A DNA stretch of 64,000 bases from Planctomycetota bacterium. GTDB lineage: Bacteria > Planctomycetota > UBA8742 > UBA2392. Below the pieces are notes generated by a model that did not search any database, was not told the DNA's origin, and was given only the letters and a program-made list of their open reading frames with translations. The translations under genes and the position numbers were made by a program. Below, piece after piece: positions 3,001 through 38,527 of the stretch. The stretch lies in contig JADLAK010000077.1 in the NCBI GenBank assembly GCA_020848275.1, positions 7,606 to 71,605 on the forward strand. Reading direction: 5' to 3'. Positions within the stretch are counted from its first letter, which is position 1. The number at the start of each line of letters is the position of its first letter.

Positions 3001-6000
3001 CGCCAACACCAGCTTCACCGTCGCCTTCGACCCGGCAAGCACCGGCGGCAAGGCGGCGACTGTGAGCTTCACCCATAACGCCACCAACGATGCCACGCCC
3101 TTCGACTTCGAGGTAGTCGGCAACGGCACCAACCCGCCGGTGATCGACATCAGCGGCAGCGCGGCATTTGGCAGCGTCGACCTGGGCCAAAGCTCGGCGG
3201 CGCACCTGATTACCATTACCAACACCGGCGGTACGGACCTGACGGTAACCGCCGTGGCCCTGGCGGGCGCTAACCCCGGCGACTGGTCGCTCTCGCCGGT
3301 TTCGCCCGCCAGCTTCCCTGGGGCGGCGTGGACGATTGCGCCCGCAGCCACCGCCACCTTCAACGCGACGTTTACGCCCACCGCAGGCGGCGCACGCAGC
3401 GCCAACATCGCCGTAACCTCCGATACTGGCGGCACGCCGGGCACGGTGACGAACTTTGCCATCACCGGCACGGGTGTGTTCCCCGTGGCCCTGAGCGCCG
3501 CGCTGATTTCCGGCGACACCGGCGGCCCGCAGGTCATCCGCGTGACGGTGACCGGCACTTTCAACACCATCAGCGACCTGCTGCTCGAGTACCAGGGCGG
3601 CAGCGTCGGTGCGGGCTGGAGCAACTCGGGCGTCATCACCCGTGTCAGCGACAGCGGTGCGACCATCAGCGGCAACCTGATTGAAGACCTCAACGCGCCG
3701 ACGGCCGGCTCGACCATCGACATTCTGTGGGATGCTTACGCCACGGAACGCCACGTCACCGCCGCCAACTATGTGGTGCGCCTGACGCCGGTCACCGGCA
3801 TGGGCAGCGGCACATCCATCAGTGTCGGGCCGTTCACTCTGACGCGCGACGGCGGCTGGGCCCAACACGTGGAGCCGGGCGGCAACATCACCGGCCGCTT
3901 CGGCCACACCACGATTTACCAAACCAGCGGTAGCGCCGACCGCATGATCGTGTTCGGCGGCAAGGTCGGCAGCACCCTGATAAACGATGTCTGGGCCTAT
4001 GACCGCGGCAGCTTCGAGCCCGGCTGGCGCCAGGTTCGTCCCACGGGCACTGCGCCGACCATTCGCCAGTACCACTCGGCGATCTACGACAGCGCCAACA
4101 ACCGTATGATCGTCTTCAGCGGCAAGAGCGGCCCGACGCTGTACAACGACGTCTGGTCCCTCAGCCTCACGCCGGGCAGCGAAGCTTGGACGCAACTCAC
4201 CCCGGGCGGCACCGCGCCGGCGATCCGTTATTCCGCGATGATGGGTTACGACGCCGCGCGCGGCCGCGCGATTGTCTACGGCGGCTGGGGCGCTGTCGCC
4301 TATGCCGACGTGTTTGCGCTGGACCTGACGCCGGGCGCCGAAGCCTGGTCGACCATCACCGCGGGCGGCACCGCGCCGCAAGCCCGCATGGGTGCGGCCG
4401 TCGCGCTGCAACCCGCGCCGGCTGATCGCCTCGTGATTTACGGCGGCTACACCAGCAGCGGCGCCAGCAGCAGCGAAATCTTCCGCCTCAGCCTCGCCCC
4501 GGGCAGCGAAACCTGGGCGTCTATCACGGCGGCGGGCGGCGCCGGCGGCAGCACGCGTTATTACACCAGCCACGTTTACGACCCTGTGCGCAACGCGCTG
4601 ATGATGTCCAGCGGCTATCGCGGCAGCACTGTACTCAAGGACGCCTGGATGCTCAGCCTCGGCGCGGGCAGCGAAACCTGGACCGCCCTGCCCGAAGACG
4701 GCGGCGCGTCCGACGGCCGCGTGGTTGGTGCTGCGGCTTACGACAGCGGCCGCAGCGAGGCCATGTTCTTCGGCGGTCTTGGCGTTGCGGGCTTTGGCGT
4801 GACGGGCCTGGTCACACTGCCGTCGTCCGGTTCGCCGACGTGGGTGCTGCCGGCCACCGGCGCGACCCAGGCCATGCCTAACGGCCGCTGGGGCGCGGGC
4901 ATGATCTACGACGCCGCTAACAGCCGCACGGTGATCTTCGGCGGCAAGGACTCGGTCAACCGCTACAATGACGTGTGGGCGGTCAACCCCGCGGCAGCCT
5001 CGCCGGTGTGGAGCAAACTGGCCACTTCAGGCACTGCGCCGACGCCGCGCGTGTATGCGCAGGTGGTTTACGACTCGAACAGCCAGCGCATGATTGTGTT
5101 CGGCGGCCAGACGGCCAGCGGCGGTTCGGTCAACGACCTCTGGGAGTTGGACCTGTCGACGCTGGCGTGGCAGCAACTGACGCCCGCGGGCGGCCCGCCG
5201 ACGGCGCGGCAATCGGCGGCGGTGTGCTACGACGCGACGCCGGGCGCCGAGCGCTTGCTCATGCACGGCGGCAACACCAACAGCGGCCTCAACGGCGAAT
5301 CTTGGGTGCTTGACCTGTCCACGCGCTATAGCGAGGCGTGGACCCAGCTCAACCCGGGCGCCGGCCCCGCGGCCCGCCAGGGCCACGGCGCGGTCTACAA
5401 TAGCGTGCTGCAGCAGTTCGTGATCTTCATGGGCAGCACCGGCACCCGCAAAGATGATGTGTGGGCGATGGACCTCAGCGGCGGCATCGGCACGGAAAGC
5501 TGGATCGACATTACGCCTGCGGCCGGGCCGCCGGCGCCCTCGGCCCGCTACCTGTTTGGCTACGCCAGCGACGCCGCGGGCCTGACGGTGTTTGTGCAGG
5601 GCGGCGACGCGGGCAGCCTGATGAACGACCTCTGGATCCTCGACCTGTCGGGCTTTGCCGCGGTCTGGACGCCGGTGATCGTCAGCGGCGGCGTTGCGCC
5701 CCTGCACCGCAGCGTGCACAGCGCCTGCTACGACGACGCCAACAACCGCCTCGTCATCGGCATGGGCCTGACGTTGTGGCCCTGCGCCGATATCTGGACG
5801 ATCCTGCCTTTTGCCGGAAGCCCGGTGTGGAGTGAAGTCCACGCGGCATCGGCCCCGGCCGCAATGGTCAACGGCGCGACCTGCTACGACCCAGTGTTCA
5901 AGCGCATGATCGCTTTTGGCGGTATCGCCAGCGGCGGCTTTGACAGCCAGCTCTGGCAGTTGGACCTCACCACGCCGGTCGCAACCTGGAGCAAACTGGC

Positions 6001-34599: not shown

Positions 34600-34630
34600 A
34601 ACAAAGGGCGGCCATGCTTGGCCGCCCTTC
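34600..34630. terminator. Probable bidirectional terminator
   Basis: 11-bp stem AAGGGCGGCCA/TGGCCGCCCTT between convergent genes. Confidence 0.7.
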
Positions 34631-34657
34631 GATAAATGGTCGTTGCGAGCACCCGGA

Positions 34658-35023
34658 TTAATAGTCGACAGGCACTTCCTCGAACTTGGTCACGCCATGG
34701 CCGCTGTCCTTCAGGGCTTTCTCGACGGCTTCCTGGGTCATCTCACTGCGGCGCTTCATTGTGATAGTCGCAATTTTGCCGTCGATGGTCACGTCGGACA
34801 CGCCCGCGATGGTCTTGAGCAGGTCCTCGACTTTCTTGATCGTGTCGGCGTCTTTCATCTCGCCGGAAATCTCGATGCTGTAAACGCGCGACGGCTGCGG
34901 GCGGCAACAGGCGCAGATCAGGCCGGTCTGGGCTTCACCGCCGGTGACGGCCGGGAACGCCGAGAGGCTCTGGGTTCCAAGAATCGCAAAAGCAAACATT
35001 GCGGCGAAGAAGGTGTTGCGCAT
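34658..35023 (-). CDS. Exported HMA-fold protein lacking the canonical CxxC
   Basis: Signal peptide. YSIEISGEMKDADTIKKVEDLLKTIAGVSDV aligns to the HMA fold with MxCxxC replaced by MKDADT. A CACC motif precedes the domain. Confidence 0.7.
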   Translation of the reverse strand: MRNTFFAAMFAFAILGTQSLSAFPAVTGGEAQTGLICACCRPQPSRVYSIEISGEMKDADTIKKVEDLLKTIAGVSDVTIDGKIATITMKRRSEMTQEAVEKALKDSGHGVTKFEEVPVDY

Positions 35024-35312
35024 GACAATCCTTTCTTTGAGCATTTTCAGCTTGTTGTAGCGGATCTTGCTTGCGGCGAGCGTCGCATCTCTGCGTCAGC
35101 CTCACTTTGCGTGGCTTTCAGCCACGCGGTCGTTCGGCTTTCTTGACCTGATCGCTCGGCGCGGCGCAATATCGCGCTCCATCAATGCTTCAAAAGCTCT
35201 TTTCGGGGCGGGCTTTTCGGCGCTCTTGTCACGCTGGACTCGCGTGGCCCCTACTAGTTTGGCGGCAAAATTACCGCTGCAAACTAGACGCGCGTTGCGC
35301 CCGCCGGTTCCG

Positions 35313-35346
35313 AAAAAACGAAGCGGGACGGCGTTAGCCGTCCCGC
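35313..35346 (-). terminator. Rho-independent terminator after the Cys-rich HMA gene
   Basis: 10-bp stem GCGGGACGGC/GCCGTCCCGC. An A-run on the + strand gives a U-tract on the - strand. Confidence 0.8.
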
Positions 35347-35366: not shown

Positions 35367-36005
35367 TTAGTTGCTGGCCTTCTTGCCGCAGCCTTCGCAC
35401 TCCTTCTTCGGAGTTTCAGCGGAGGCTTCCTTCTTGGGCTCTTCCTTCTTTTCCTCGACCTTGACGACCTTGTCGCAGGAAGTCACGCCGAAGTCGGTAC
35501 CCTTGAGGGCCGTTTCGATGGCCGCCTTGTCGATGGTCTTGCCTTCGTTCATGGTGATGGTGACGGTGCCTTTTTCGACGTCCACGGCAACGTTGGCGAC
35601 GCCGTCGATCTTCTTGATCTTGGCCGCAACGCTCTTTCCGCAGCCGGCGCAGCACATCTCGGTGACAACAACGGTGTAGACGTCACCGGTCTTGGTTTCA
35701 GCTTTCACTTCCTTCTTGGCTTCGCAGCCCTTGCAGCCTGCACAATTCTTGCTGCCGCAGCCCTCACAGCCGCCAACGGTGCCTGCTTCCTTGGCGCCGG
35801 CGTCCTTGGTCTTGGTGCAGGTGCCGCCGCCACAACCGCCGCAGCCGCCACCACCGCACCCGCCGTCGTCCGCCTTGGTCGCGGCCTTCTTTTCGGTGCT
35901 TGCGCCGCAAGCGCGCTTACAGCCGCAACTGCCGGCAAACGCATCGCTGCCCATGAGCGCGGCGCCGGCAAACATCAGGAGAAACACAAAGAAAGTTGAG
36001 CGCAT
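35367..36005 (-). CDS. Exported HMA-domain protein with Cys/Gly-rich metallothionein-like N-terminal region
   Basis: Signal peptide, multiple CxC/CxxC clusters, YTVVVTEMCCAGCGKSVAAKIKKIDGVANV and C-terminal CEGC. Confidence 0.85.
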   Translation of the reverse strand: MRSTFFVFLLMFAGAALMGSDAFAGSCGCKRACGASTEKKAATKADDGGCGGGGCGGCGGGTCTKTKDAGAKEAGTVGGCEGCGSKNCAGCKGCEAKKEVKAETKTGDVYTVVVTEMCCAGCGKSVAAKIKKIDGVANVAVDVEKGTVTITMNEGKTIDKAAIETALKGTDFGVTSCDKVVKVEEKKEEPKKEASAETPKKECEGCGKKASN

Positions 36006-36188: not shown

Positions 36189-36629
36189 TCAACCCTTTGG
36201 TGGAGGTTGAGCAGCCTCTGGTTTTTCCTTTGTGGGCTCTTTCTTGGCCTCTTCCTTGACCTGCTCAAAGGACGTGACGCTGAGGCCGTCTTTGGAGTTC
36301 TTCACGGCTGTCTCTACGACCTCTTTGGTCAATGTCTTTCCGGGCTTGGTGACGATCACCGCGGTTTTGTCTTTCAATGTGACAACTACGCTGTTCACGC
36401 CATCCAGGCTGGTAAGGGCGGTCTTGGCCGCCTTGACTCACATACCTCAGGACATCCCGTCAATGATGACCTTGTAGGTTGTTGGCGCCGCCGCACCATC
36501 CGCTTTGGCAGTTTCAGGTTTGTCGGTCGCCTTTGGGTCACTTGCGGCGTCGCCGGCAAAAGCGACGTTAGCCCCGAGGAGAGCGATACCTAACGCGAGG
36601 ATAAAGATGAACTTCAGAAACGATGCCAT
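36189..36629 (-). CDS. Exported HMA-domain putative selenoprotein with two in-frame TGA (GMS-U-GM-U), 146 aa
   Basis: ORF-track fragments 36447-36629 and 36189-36398 are in one frame. Joined they read YKVIIDGMS*GM*VKAAKTALTSLDGVNSVVV, an HMA domain with TGA (36447-36449, 36438-36440) at both Cys positions. GGAGA RBS, signal peptide. Confidence 0.88.
36396..36434 (-). promoter_or_regulatory. Candidate bacterial SECIS hairpin pair
   Basis: mRNA after the UGAs: AAGGCGG-CCAAGA-CCGCC(C)UU, then CA-GCC-UGGAU-GGC-(G)UG. Confidence 0.55.
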
Positions 36630-36667: not shown

Positions 36668-37114
36668 CTACTTCACGCCGTGTGACGCCTTCAGCGCCGC
36701 CCAGTCCCCATTGCGATCTTCCTTGAGGCTGACCAGTCCGTATCCGAAGTCGTCTTCAATACTTTTCTTGAGTGACTCGTACTCAAGCTTCGCCTTTTCG
36801 TTACCGTGCAAATAGATGTTGAATTCCTCGATGACGGTGAAAGCGTCGGTTATCCCTTCCAGGGATAGCAGGGCGTCAACGACGCCCGTGGCTCAGCCGC
36901 CTCAGTCCATGCCGGTGATGCCCAGGATATAGATGACATCCTTGCTTGTCGGCTTAGGCGGTTTGGGCAGGGGTTCGGGCGTCGGCTCGGGCTCGGGTTT
37001 TTCGACGCCGCCGCCTCCTTTGCGGAACTCGATGGGCGTCAGGTCTTCAACGGTGATCTGGCAGCCCGCGATCAGGAACGCGATTGAAGCCAGCAGCGAC
37101 AAACCGTGCTTCAT
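36668..37114 (-). CDS. HMA-domain lipoprotein, putative selenoprotein with two in-frame TGA (GMD-U-GG-U), 148 aa
   Basis: Lipobox LIAGC and Pro-rich linker, then IYILGITGMD*GG*ATGVVDALLSLEGITDA. TGA at 36902-36904 and 36893-36895. The frame stays open to TAG 36668-36670. AAGGA RBS. Confidence 0.88.
36851..36887 (-). promoter_or_regulatory. Candidate bacterial SECIS hairpin pair
   Basis: Two perfect 7-bp stems right after the UGAs: GGGCGUC-GUU-GACGCCC and UAUCCCU-GGA-AGGGAUA. Confidence 0.65.
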
Positions 37115-37126
37115 GGCCGGATTCCT

Positions 37127-38002
37127 TTAAAAGACGTACGAGAACATAAGCATGGCTTCGCCCTCGTGCACGAACTGCTTGCCGAAGTGATAGTGGTAAA
37201 GCGGCAGCATCACGCCGAATTTCACCTCGAAATCGTTGTTGATGTTCATCTGGAAGCCAATGGCCGCCTCAACTTCATAAAAGCCGCTGTTTTCATCGCG
37301 ATCGCCGTCCATCTCGCCCTGGGCGCGCGCTTCAAAATCCATTTCAACGAGCAGGATCATGTCGAAGTCGCGGTAGTTCTTGATCTCCCACAGACGATGG
37401 CCATAGGCCATGTGGGTCTTGAACCCTGGCCCCTCGCCGGAATCGGAGCGGCGCGTCGACCCATAACCTGCCAGGTCTATCCAGAAATAGTGGCGTGTAG
37501 TGCTGGTTTGCGCGGTCAGGCCTCCCATGAACGTAAAGGTTTCGTCGCCAAGGGAAGGGCCGTCGACGCGTTTTTTTGCGGTAGGCAGTTCGGCCCGGAC
37601 AAACCAGCCCGCCTGCGAACTTCCGCCGGGGTATGGATGGTAAAGGAAGCGGTACTTGGCGCTGATCTCGGCGTTGCCCGGCCCGTAGTAACTTTCGCGA
37701 TCGTCTTTGGACCACTCAGATACGTAAGTGACAGGAAACTCAGCCTTGAGCGACCAGTCGCGCGAAATGCCCCAAGTAAAACCCGGCATGACCATGTGCT
37801 CAAATCGCCGCAGGTCACGCGGGTTTTCGTCGGGATTGTCGCCGCTGAAAAAGCGATAGGAGTACTCGAACATCTGCTCGACTTCGACCTCGAAGCCGTT
37901 GGTCCAGATCGTGCGCGGCGTCAGCCCAAACATGGTCTCGTGCGCATACGCGCCGCCCGCAAAGATCGCCAGCAAAAGCCCGATAATGCTCAGTTGTTTC
38001 AC
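37127..38002 (-). CDS. Putative outer-membrane beta-barrel ('transporter'-like) protein
   Basis: GTG start with AAGG RBS, signal peptide (AYA|HETMF), alternating amphipathic beta-strand pattern and C-terminal Phe (LMFSYVF). Confidence 0.7.
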   Translation of the reverse strand: MKQLSIIGLLLAIFAGGAYAHETMFGLTPRTIWTNGFEVEVEQMFEYSYRFFSGDNPDENPRDLRRFEHMVMPGFTWGISRDWSLKAEFPVTYVSEWSKDDRESYYGPGNAEISAKYRFLYHPYPGGSSQAGWFVRAELPTAKKRVDGPSLGDETFTFMGGLTAQTSTTRHYFWIDLAGYGSTRRSDSGEGPGFKTHMAYGHRLWEIKNYRDFDMILLVEMDFEARAQGEMDGDRDENSGFYEVEAAIGFQMNINNDFEVKFGVMLPLYHYHFGKQFVHEGEAMLMFSYVF

Positions 38003-38016
38003 GCGGCACCTTTTCC

Positions 38017-38478
38017 TTACTTCGACCTTGCACCGACCGTCTTGCGCACTCCCTTGGGGTGATCCTCGCAACACGACTTGCCCTCAAGGTCCTGAAGGAT
38101 ATTGCAGTCTTTGACGCTCGCCGCGCCGCCGGGGCAGTGCTCCACCAGTTCCTTCAAGTGATTGCGCATCTGGTGCAGCAGCGCAATCTTGCCCTCGATC
38201 TCGGCCAGCTTGCGTGCGGCCACTTCACTGATGTCGCCGCAGGTCGCGATGTTCGAGTCGCGCAGGAAAAGCAGTTCGTGGATTTCCTTGAGTGTGAAGC
38301 CGACGTCCTTGGAGCGCTGGATGAACCGCAGGCGCTCGGCGTCATGTTCGCTGTACAGGCGGTGGCCGCCCGAGGTGCGCTCGGGCTTGGGCAGCAAGCC
38401 TTCGCGCTCGTAGAAACGAACGGTTTCAATGTGGACTCCCGCGGCGGTGGCAAGCTTGCTGACGGTCATGGCGTTCAT
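38017..38478 (-). CDS. merR: MerR-family metal-responsive regulator (three-Cys MerR/ZntR/CadR type)
   Basis: HTH GVHIETVRFYEREGLL. Cys80, Cys115 and Cys125 match the MerR Cys82/117/126 pattern. Extra CCEDH tail. Confidence 0.88.
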   Translation of the reverse strand: MNAMTVSKLATAAGVHIETVRFYEREGLLPKPERTSGGHRLYSEHDAERLRFIQRSKDVGFTLKEIHELLFLRDSNIATCGDISEVAARKLAEIEGKIALLHQMRNHLKELVEHCPGGAASVKDCNILQDLEGKSCCEDHPKGVRKTVGARSK

Positions 38479-38496: not shown

Positions 38497-38527
38497 AGTC
38501 TATCTCCGTAGCTTACTACGGGTTCAA
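38497..38527 (-). promoter_or_regulatory. mer-type promoter/operator: -35 TTGAAC, 19-bp spacer containing dyad CCGTAG-TAAG-CTACGG, -10 TAGACT
   Basis: The minus strand reads TTGAAC CCGTAGTAAGCTACGGAGA TAGACT. Classical PmerT is TTGACT CCGTACATGAGTACGGAAG TAAGGT (same spacer length and dyad). Confidence 0.88.

Follow-up and report, generated by a model that had tools for sequence, protein, structure and literature searches.

A putative metal-sensor operon with an outer-membrane barrel

The stretch of 64,000 nucleotides of planctomycete DNA analysed here (the window) carries on its minus strand a gene for an outer-membrane beta-barrel protein (37127..38002), set between the gene of a MerR-family metal sensor and that of a lipoprotein with a heavy-metal-associated (HMA) domain. 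The barrel, its relatives and its possible part in metal handling are the subject of this report. The stop codon of the gene occupies positions 37127-37129 and the product has 291 amino acids. In the mechanical list of open reading frames (ORFs) the frame is given as 37127-38074, reaching upstream to a GTG at 38074 and overlapping merR. We took the GTG at 38002 as the start codon, since it lies 14 nt past the merR stop codon, is preceded by the purine-rich AAGGAAAAGG and coincides in the alignment with the ATG start codons of homologous genes.

Residues 1-20 (37943..38002, minus strand) read as a type I signal peptide, with K2, a hydrophobic core (LSIIGLLLAIFAGG) and cleavage after AYA. This region forms a helix at residues 3-13 in the structure model described below, with low values of the predicted local distance difference test (pLDDT) at residues 14-18, and an invariant A-H junction in the relatives backs the cleavage position. 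The mature protein (37127..37942, minus strand) begins with HETMF and ends with FSYVF; an aromatic C-terminus is typical of outer-membrane barrels. This ORF is a real gene, far beyond chance, as shown by relatives at E values of 1e-96 to 1e-89 and by close orthologues in most genomes of its family. Public gene calls for several orthologues (P0009, P0011 and P0012, and also the one at L012; P and L numbers denote proteins and loci of the survey) begin at an internal Met (MWKGG…), without signal peptide and N-terminal His, both of which are present in the genome copy identical to P0009.

The first gene of the operon is merR (38017..38478, minus strand; Pfam MerR_1 7.6e-22, MerR-DNA-bind 1.3e-18). 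Upstream of it a putative MerR-type promoter (38497..38527, minus strand) could be read from the sequence, consisting of TTGAAC (38527-38522), a 19-nt spacer containing the dyad CCGTAG-TAAG-CTACGG (38521-38506) and TAGACT (38502-38497). A 19-nt spacer with a central dyad is an established hallmark of promoters activated by MerR-family proteins. A generic sigma-70 scan, which allowed spacers of 16-18 nt only, found no promoter.

Downstream, the lipoprotein gene (36668..37114, minus strand) begins 12 nt after the barrel gene. Its product has the lipobox LIAGC and an HMA loop encoded as GMD-TGA-GG-TGA, which becomes GMD-U-GG-U when the two in-frame TGA codons are translated as selenocysteine (U). 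Translated in the same way, the next gene (36189..36629, minus strand) yields a second exported HMA protein, with the loop GMS-U-GM-U, and similar UxxU HMA genes are present at loci L001, L004, L010 and L011. There follow an exported Cys-rich protein with an HMA domain (35367..36005, minus strand; MCCAGC; Pfam HMA 1.8e-08) and, after this fifth gene, a terminator-like hairpin (35323-35346). The sixth gene (34658..35044, minus strand), which has relatives in L001 and L004, encodes an exported protein that carries CACC and is HMA-like, with a Pfam HMA match (0.0037) that stays below the cut-off, and a strong terminator-like hairpin (34602-34631) closes the cluster; both hairpins come from a terminator scan. 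In this last gene CACC (GLICACCRPQ) takes the place of the LL-U-A-G-U-C that precedes the HMA-like domain in those relatives, a Sec-to-Cys exchange inside one gene family. The operon codes for four exported HMA proteins in all, and for no importer, reductase, resistance-nodulation-division (RND) protein or membrane-fusion partner.

Fold and family membership

An AlphaFold2 model of the barrel, built with an alignment of 40 relatives, has a mean pLDDT of 93.5, a predicted template modelling score (pTM) of 0.84 and a pattern of twelve strands. The top Foldseek matches were FapF (PDB 5O65) and the COG4313 channel Pput2725 (PDB 4RL8, TM score 0.74/0.80). The predicted fold is, with confidence, a 12-stranded outer-membrane barrel of about 270 mature residues. 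An earlier note, made from the sequence alone, had proposed an outer-membrane barrel at this position, directly upstream of the Sec lipoprotein, and on these points it was right: the start at 38002 that it chose is the fitting one, the fold is predicted to be a barrel, the lipoprotein gene is the next one, and the signal peptide, the HETMF start, the terminal Phe and the His/Met motifs that it listed (FEHMVMP, KTHMAYGH, YHYHF and VHE) are all in the sequence. In the solved structure of Pput2725, from Pseudomonas putida F1, the first 14 residues of the 12-stranded barrel lie folded inside its lumen, which they enter from the periplasm (PMC4493636). Residues 25-36 of our model have pLDDT values of 88-96 and lie inside the stretch aligned to 4RL8 chain residues 2 onward, so that the N-terminal segment of the window barrel may be placed in the lumen as well.

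Family assignment required a detour, as the window barrel itself has no PF13557 match at E <= 0.1 and an NCBIfam scan gave no family name to it or to eight distant members discussed below; among the latter the single outcome was a weak MerT-like match at the N-terminus of P0034. A word-indexed search found only three relatives (50-53% identity, with the E values given above), and phmmer, run exhaustively, picked out 70 representatives (E <= 1e-3) among 1.8 billion. PF13557 is matched by 20 of the 40 full-length relatives (best 3.3e-14), and phmmer ties the window barrel to the PF13557-positive proteins P0014 (1e-19) and P0018 (5e-16). Membership of PF13557/COG4313 therefore follows by transitive homology. 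When the family profile was run against PDB sequences, FapF was matched at 7.4e-06 and nothing else was returned. The LPT[AG] motif and the C-terminal aromatic residue are common to the window barrel and the COG4313/PF13557 channels. As for PcoB/CopB (PF05275), the window barrel neither matches the CopB model nor has a pcoA/copA multicopper oxidase gene as neighbour. By architecture, then, it is a member of the COG4313/PF13557 superfamily and not a PcoB/CopB, FapF or Mer protein.

A proposed His-led branch of COG4313 proteins

Most of the 70 representatives share a mature start, H-E-P-x-F-G-x-G-P-x-T, directly after the final A of the signal peptide. The window version is HETMFGLTPRT: here AYA is followed by HETMFGLTPRTIW, which fits the branch motif H-[E/N]-[T/P]-x-F-G-x-x-P-x-T. 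The few representatives without a His-led start begin with QDGGIEVFAGETLF, as generic COG4313 proteins do. The N-terminal His is found in all 22 close relatives and in 21 of the 22 rows of the alignment (A6) used to map the interface described below. In a quick, unrooted tree the five generic rows form one clade with a Shimodaira-Hasegawa-like approximate likelihood ratio (SH-aLRT) support of 96, and the window group, set among the His-led sequences, forms a clade of its own on a long branch (SH-aLRT 100). Three rows inside the window clade have no motif; these are gene calls from an internal Met, and one is identical to a motif-bearing genome copy. The sequences thus suggest that the His-led proteins are a distinct branch of PF13557/COG4313, which we propose here and which is not a curated family.

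Genomic context of close and distant relatives

Close orthologues were sought in 401 genomes of the phylum. At E < 1e-90 they are present in 16 of the 19 that represent the window's family and in one of the two from its sister family, with only distant matches elsewhere. All 18 related loci, which belong to the same Planctomycetota order, have the HMA lipoprotein directly downstream of the barrel, and 15 of them have merR directly upstream. In each of the 18, the partner lipoprotein consists of a lipobox, a Pro/Glu-rich linker of 25-50 residues and an HMA loop of the form G-x-x-G-[M/I/V]-D-U-G-x-U, in which selenocysteine occurs every time and cysteine never. An alignment-based search of genome contigs recovered four related loci, all from Planctomycetota metagenome-assembled genomes; a single-protein query of the same kind of contigs recovered none. 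On metagenomic contigs the same gene order is seen, with more UxxU proteins downstream.

Two related contigs (L001:9900-11640 and L004:2700-3900) encode series of small exported proteins, at most five or six in a row, whose genes contain TGA codons in pairs. Among them are proteins that are not of the HMA type (…YETUGEDU… and …DYDSUGESU…) as well as a U-x-x-x-U spacing (GMSUGIKU).

Contigs were also sought for nine His-led members only 24-30% identical to the window barrel, of which one contig was too short and eight were informative. Metal genes are present on all eight, and on seven an HMA gene lies beside the barrel or within its cluster; the eighth, L039, has genes for YHS, thioredoxin-like and DsbD proteins. 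Three contigs have the order MerR, thioredoxin-like protein (Trx3), barrel, HMA and NHL propeller, with ArsR and P-type ATPase genes nearby in L040. The other arrangements are more varied: CsoR, a MerT-HMA fusion, CsoR, barrel and double HMA; zf_CopZ, MerB, barrel and HMA; a 555-residue HMA-flavoprotein with the architecture of MerA, followed by HMA, barrel and NHL propeller; CsoR, two tandem barrels (one with a MerT-like N-terminus) and HMA (L055); and a MerR-headed cluster (L049, GCA_022563965.1) in which two PF13557 barrels (1449-2339 and 4001-4954) flank an ArsP permease, with ArsR, MerF, glutaredoxin, HMA and flavoprotein genes downstream. The HMA neighbours of the distant barrels (L040:2127-2447, L042:5805-6179, L043:5352-5903, L048:4842-5153 and L050:3659-3985) belong to one orthologous subtype with an invariant DGL[S/A]CPFCAYG[L/V]EKK loop. 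Their signal peptides are of the ordinary kind and the proteins are soluble and periplasmic; this CPFC subtype is distinct from that of the Planctomycetota lipoproteins with their G-x-x-G-M-D-U-G-x-U loop.

Three further features of the distant loci deserve mention. The six-bladed NHL-repeat propeller regularly follows the barrel/HMA pair in the MerR cassettes (L040:2478-3476, NHL 1e-50; L042:6179-7135; L050:4858-5844), and between merR and the barrel such cassettes encode a thioredoxin-like protein that is small and cytoplasmic and contains CPVC, CPYC and CC. At L055:1737-2834 a single gene call (P0034; also P0044) joins a MerT-like N-terminus (LPWCCILP; NF033560 merT_RC607 1.6e-07, below cut-off) to a His-led barrel; this may be a genuine fusion, or the gene caller may have run two genes together.

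The genome from which the window comes also holds a second, generic barrel of COG4313 type (L008, G000:C15:205502-206461), which matches the family profile at E 1.9e-20 and has no metal genes adjoining. Ten generic COG4313 loci from the phylum were examined, this paralogue among them, and none has a MerR or CxxC-HMA gene within 1.5 kb. As the generic loci lack these genes and the distant His-led loci have metal genes, the metal association is specific to the His-led branch, and it holds at every depth examined. In several lineages, then, genes of this branch neighbour those of exported, MerP/CopZ-like HMA proteins under MerR, CsoR or ArsR sensors, often within mercury loci. The generic, non-His-led barrels of other Planctomycetota repeatedly precede a conserved ORF of about 116-124 residues without Cys (MVKALKRRVGAHAVTLDT...), found in L033-L038 and L028 (e.g. 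L037:2583-2933, L038:2478-2852 and L028:873-1235). A Pfam check of these ORFs for likeness to HMA gave no match; they may represent another pairing of a barrel with a small partner.

Predicted docking of an HMA protein on the barrel

A complex was predicted for the distant, all-cysteine pair of contig L040, namely the barrel P0018 and the adjacent HMA protein, both supplied as alignments. The interface score (ipSAE) was 0.83, compared with 0.01 for the best of three controls. Among solved complexes 58 of 80 attain this mark, and among mismatched pairs 2 of 110; the counts apply here only roughly, since the L040 prediction was made with our own alignments. The three runs share at least 97% of contacts, and the partner has a pLDDT of at least 90. 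As a prediction, the model supports binding between barrel and HMA protein in the L040 pair. No solved structure of a barrel with an HMA protein is known to us, and FapF was the only PDB sequence matched by the family profile; recall of a known complex by the predictor therefore seems unlikely.

In the predicted complex the CxxC loop is placed on the periplasmic mouth of the barrel, in contact with the N-terminal His. The HMA protein takes part in the interface with residues 39-53, which cover the metal loop DGLACPFCAYGLEKK and the first helix. The barrel contributes its first mature residue (His29), the beginning of strand 1, turns on the periplasmic side (five of them) and, at the C-terminus, His299. 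When transferred to the window protein through alignment A6, the barrel positions correspond to H21, T31, W33, G36, S80, G126-S128, S167-T168, Y210, D212, D214, Q251, N253, N256 and E259. At least 90% conservation within the window clade is seen for H21, T31, W33, G36, G126-S128, S167-T168, Y210, D214, N253 and N256, and not for D212. Several interface positions differ systematically between the window clade and the distant clade, a pattern that would follow if every barrel were matched to the HMA subtype of its own partner.

Conservation was also counted over the 22 close relatives. The periplasmic turns G126-G127-S128, S167-T168, Y210-D214 and N253-N256 are strongly conserved, and periplasmic turns are the best-kept parts of the branch. 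Such conservation of periplasmic turns is unusual among barrels. Judged from the sequences, it points to a protein-binding face. Among the histidines, H21 (the first of the mature protein) and H197 are kept in 22/22 and H279 in 21/22, and no others count as conserved. H171 (16/22) and H69 (10/22) are partly kept, and the histidines of YHYHF are private to the window sequence. There is no Cys in the barrel and no Met at 90% conservation. The wider branch has Asp/Asn or Asp in place of H197 and H279, and the polar residues that are invariant are H1 (mature numbering), E40, R118, R203, D214, E220 and Q276.

Proposed function and alternatives

Taken together, these observations suggest, with a probability that we would put at roughly 0.55, that the His-led COG4313-type barrel is an outer-membrane gate for a thiophilic metal that docks an HMA protein at its periplasmic mouth. 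The metal would be of the mercury(II) type, although Cd, Cu, Ag or a neutral or organic species is possible. The HMA protein would set its metal-binding loop on the mouth, against the N-terminal His, and the metal would pass directly between channel and chaperone without ever being free in the periplasm. It is somewhat more likely that the metal is captured on entry, moving from the outside through the barrel to a high-affinity selenolate or thiolate sink, than that it leaves by this route. We lean towards entry because a metal that goes over from N/O ligands to a thiolate or selenolate moves downhill, and because the solved family member has a narrow, occluded and rather hydrophobic path suited to neutral species (HgCl2, organomercurials). 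A histidine brace, formed by the free N-terminal amine and His1 together with H197/H279, can be imagined as the metal site, but this is speculation.

The earlier note had reached a similar proposal with an argument that proved weak. It listed several His and Met residues in inferring a metal-conducting or metal-binding channel. A His/Met-rich path was accordingly considered and set aside as the main argument, since the conservation count left the three histidines listed above and no Met; the signal that matters is the N-terminal His together with the highly conserved periplasmic turns. The description of the barrel as standing in place of an inner-membrane Mer transporter is true of its position only, as the barrels of relatives co-occur with transporters of MerT/MerF type. 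The suggested partnership with the HMA lipoprotein fared better: adjacency is constant across the related loci, and the docking score of the distant all-Cys pair favours such binding at the level of a model. An association of homologues with metal genes was found both in the close synteny and on the distant contigs. That the barrel conducts metal, which metal this is and in which direction it moves we infer from this body of evidence.

Several points weigh against the proposal of an outer-membrane metal gate. Having no Cys and no conserved Met, the barrel offers N/O ligands only and lacks soft ones that could take up Hg(II) or Cu(I). The placement of H21, H197 and H279 relative to the pore is derived from the alignment and from strand parity. 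The characterised channel function of the PF13557/COG4313 family covers hydrophobic organics only (PMC4493636), and the window barrel itself reaches no Pfam threshold, its only hit being OMP_b-brl at 22 bits (cut-off 28.7). The docked pair comes from another organism, with a barrel 24% identical to that of the window and an HMA protein of a different subtype (CPFC, soluble). The best NCBIfam scores of the window MerR, for MerR (TIGR02051; 131.8 bits, cut-off 150.85) and ZntR (128.8 bits, cut-off 143), lie close together for Hg and Zn and miss the cut-off in each case, so that no effector metal is assigned to it on this basis. Finally, the window genome (88% complete) has no MerA over the cut-off (309 vs 454 bits) and no MerT. 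Import for the purpose of reduction, the logic of mer systems, therefore cannot apply there, and the reason for admitting a toxic metal is left unexplained.

The barrel could instead be an exit pore, with inner-membrane exporters loading the periplasm and HMA proteins collecting the metal and delivering it to the barrel mouth for outward diffusion. We regard this as a serious rival, albeit an unlikely one. MerR-family activators normally turn on detoxification at metal excess, the operon has no importer or reductase, a P-type ATPase and ArsR adjoin the distant L040 cassette, and the docking geometry of the L040 pair is compatible with both directions. The literature on the copper barrel PcoB is divided, the protein of C. 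vibrioides being described as a copper efflux channel (PMC12509749) and that of E. coli being found to permit import and not export (PMC9210255). Against an exit pore it can be said that transfer from selenolate or thiolate to a barrel with N/O ligands only would be thermodynamically uphill, with no energy source at the outer membrane; nor is there an RND or membrane-fusion partner in the operon.

It is less probable still, and we think distinctly so, that the barrel acts as a dock or translocator, anchoring the chaperone at the outer membrane or passing the lipoprotein or other HMA proteins to the surface in the manner of FapF, a barrel of equal structure through which amyloid subunits pass unfolded. 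The number of exported HMA proteins in the operon (four), the 25-50 residue Pro/Glu linker of the lipoprotein and the HMA domain capping the periplasmic mouth in the predicted complex would all suit such a role. The window barrel, however, lacks the N-terminal coiled-coil and plug region of FapF (about 90 residues), the predicted complex contains a folded HMA domain and not a threaded chain, and the distant partners are soluble proteins.

Least probable of all is that the barrel is a COG4313 channel of the usual kind, co-regulated with metal genes but passing no metal ion; its cargo would then be a hydrophobic organic, for instance a lipid, a thiol ligand or a carrier of organometals. In favour of this are the characterised or proposed substrates of the family (hydrophobic organics, Pput2725 being poor for ions; PMC4493636), the lack of soft-metal ligands in the barrel and a MerB gene in one neighbourhood, suggestive of organomercurials. 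Against it, conserved HMA adjacency and predicted docking of a CxxC loop on the mouth are unexpected for a channel unrelated to metals, and generic family members have no such context.

The proposal of an outer-membrane metal gate may be extended beyond the window. His-led PF13557 barrels could be the missing outer-membrane part of mercury-type relays, widespread and docking MerP-like chaperones through the free N-terminal His, with the Planctomycetota version rebuilt on UxxU partners into an envelope trap that stands alone and works with neither a reductase nor an importer in the inner membrane. We put forward this wider view tentatively, the balance being somewhat against it.

Comparison with known systems

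The window barrel resembles the COG4313/PF13557 channels such as Pput2725 in its length (about 270 mature residues), its 12-stranded architecture, its relatives' matches to the Pfam model, its LPT[AG] motif and its C-terminal aromatic residue. Its branch differs from them in the invariant His as mature residue 1 and in the conserved periplasmic turns, and its neighbours are metal sensors and HMA proteins and not genes of aromatic or lipid catabolism. Pput2725 is thought to pass hydrophobic molecules and to allow poor passage of ions (PMC4493636). FapF, the functional-amyloid polypeptide transporter of Pseudomonas, is structurally close, residues 19-291 of our model aligning to FapF residues 93-406, yet it has an N-terminal coiled coil and plug helix that are absent here; the window locus has merR and HMA genes with no fap genes nearby, and the partner is a folded metal-binding domain.

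PcoB/CopB (PDB 7PGE) is a functional analogue, both being outer-membrane barrels that are metal-induced (putatively so in the window), with periplasmic metal-binding proteins in the operon. For both, the direction of flux can be disputed, PcoB having been assigned to import (PMC9210255) and to efflux (PMC12509749); the E. coli protein is a precedent for a metal-induced 'defence' barrel that allows import (PMC9210255). An N-terminal His-bearing region is important in PcoB, where it is a long disordered His/Met domain, whereas the window barrel has a short, ordered His-led segment (H21-G36), and the partners in the window are HMA proteins and not PcoA/PcoC.

A parallel in logic is the MerP-MerT relay of Tn501/Tn21-type mer systems, in which an exported HMA protein hands a thiophilic metal to a membrane protein under the control of a MerR switch. 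Distant members of the branch sit in true mer loci with MerT, MerF, MerB or MerA-like genes. The membrane partner in the window differs in being a barrel of the outer membrane, which the mer paradigm as described does not include, and in belonging to a genome without MerT or a MerA over the cut-off. A survey of mer systems lists periplasmic MerP and inner-membrane MerT/C/E/F/G, and draws the crossing of the outer layer as diffusion (PMC8261052). Our search of open-access papers found none linking the PF13557/COG4313 barrel family to metals. The COG4313 architecture is known; what would be new is a metal-relay branch of these channels, here partnered by selenocysteine proteins.

Significance

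The module is invisible to automated annotation because the barrel has no Pfam or NCBIfam name, several of its database entries start at an internal Met and the partner genes are split by TGA codons. The all-cysteine cassettes of L040 type are directly testable in the laboratory, and the double-selenocysteine lipoprotein partner of the window lineage offers a natural case for selenolate-based metal capture. If the proposed function is true, it would explain operons that have HMA proteins and no transporter, and the COG4313 channels would gain a second cargo class, inorganic or organometallic. A dedicated barrel, inherited together with MerP-like proteins and predicted to dock them, would also add an outer-membrane step to mercury and soft-metal pathways, which textbooks start at the periplasm.

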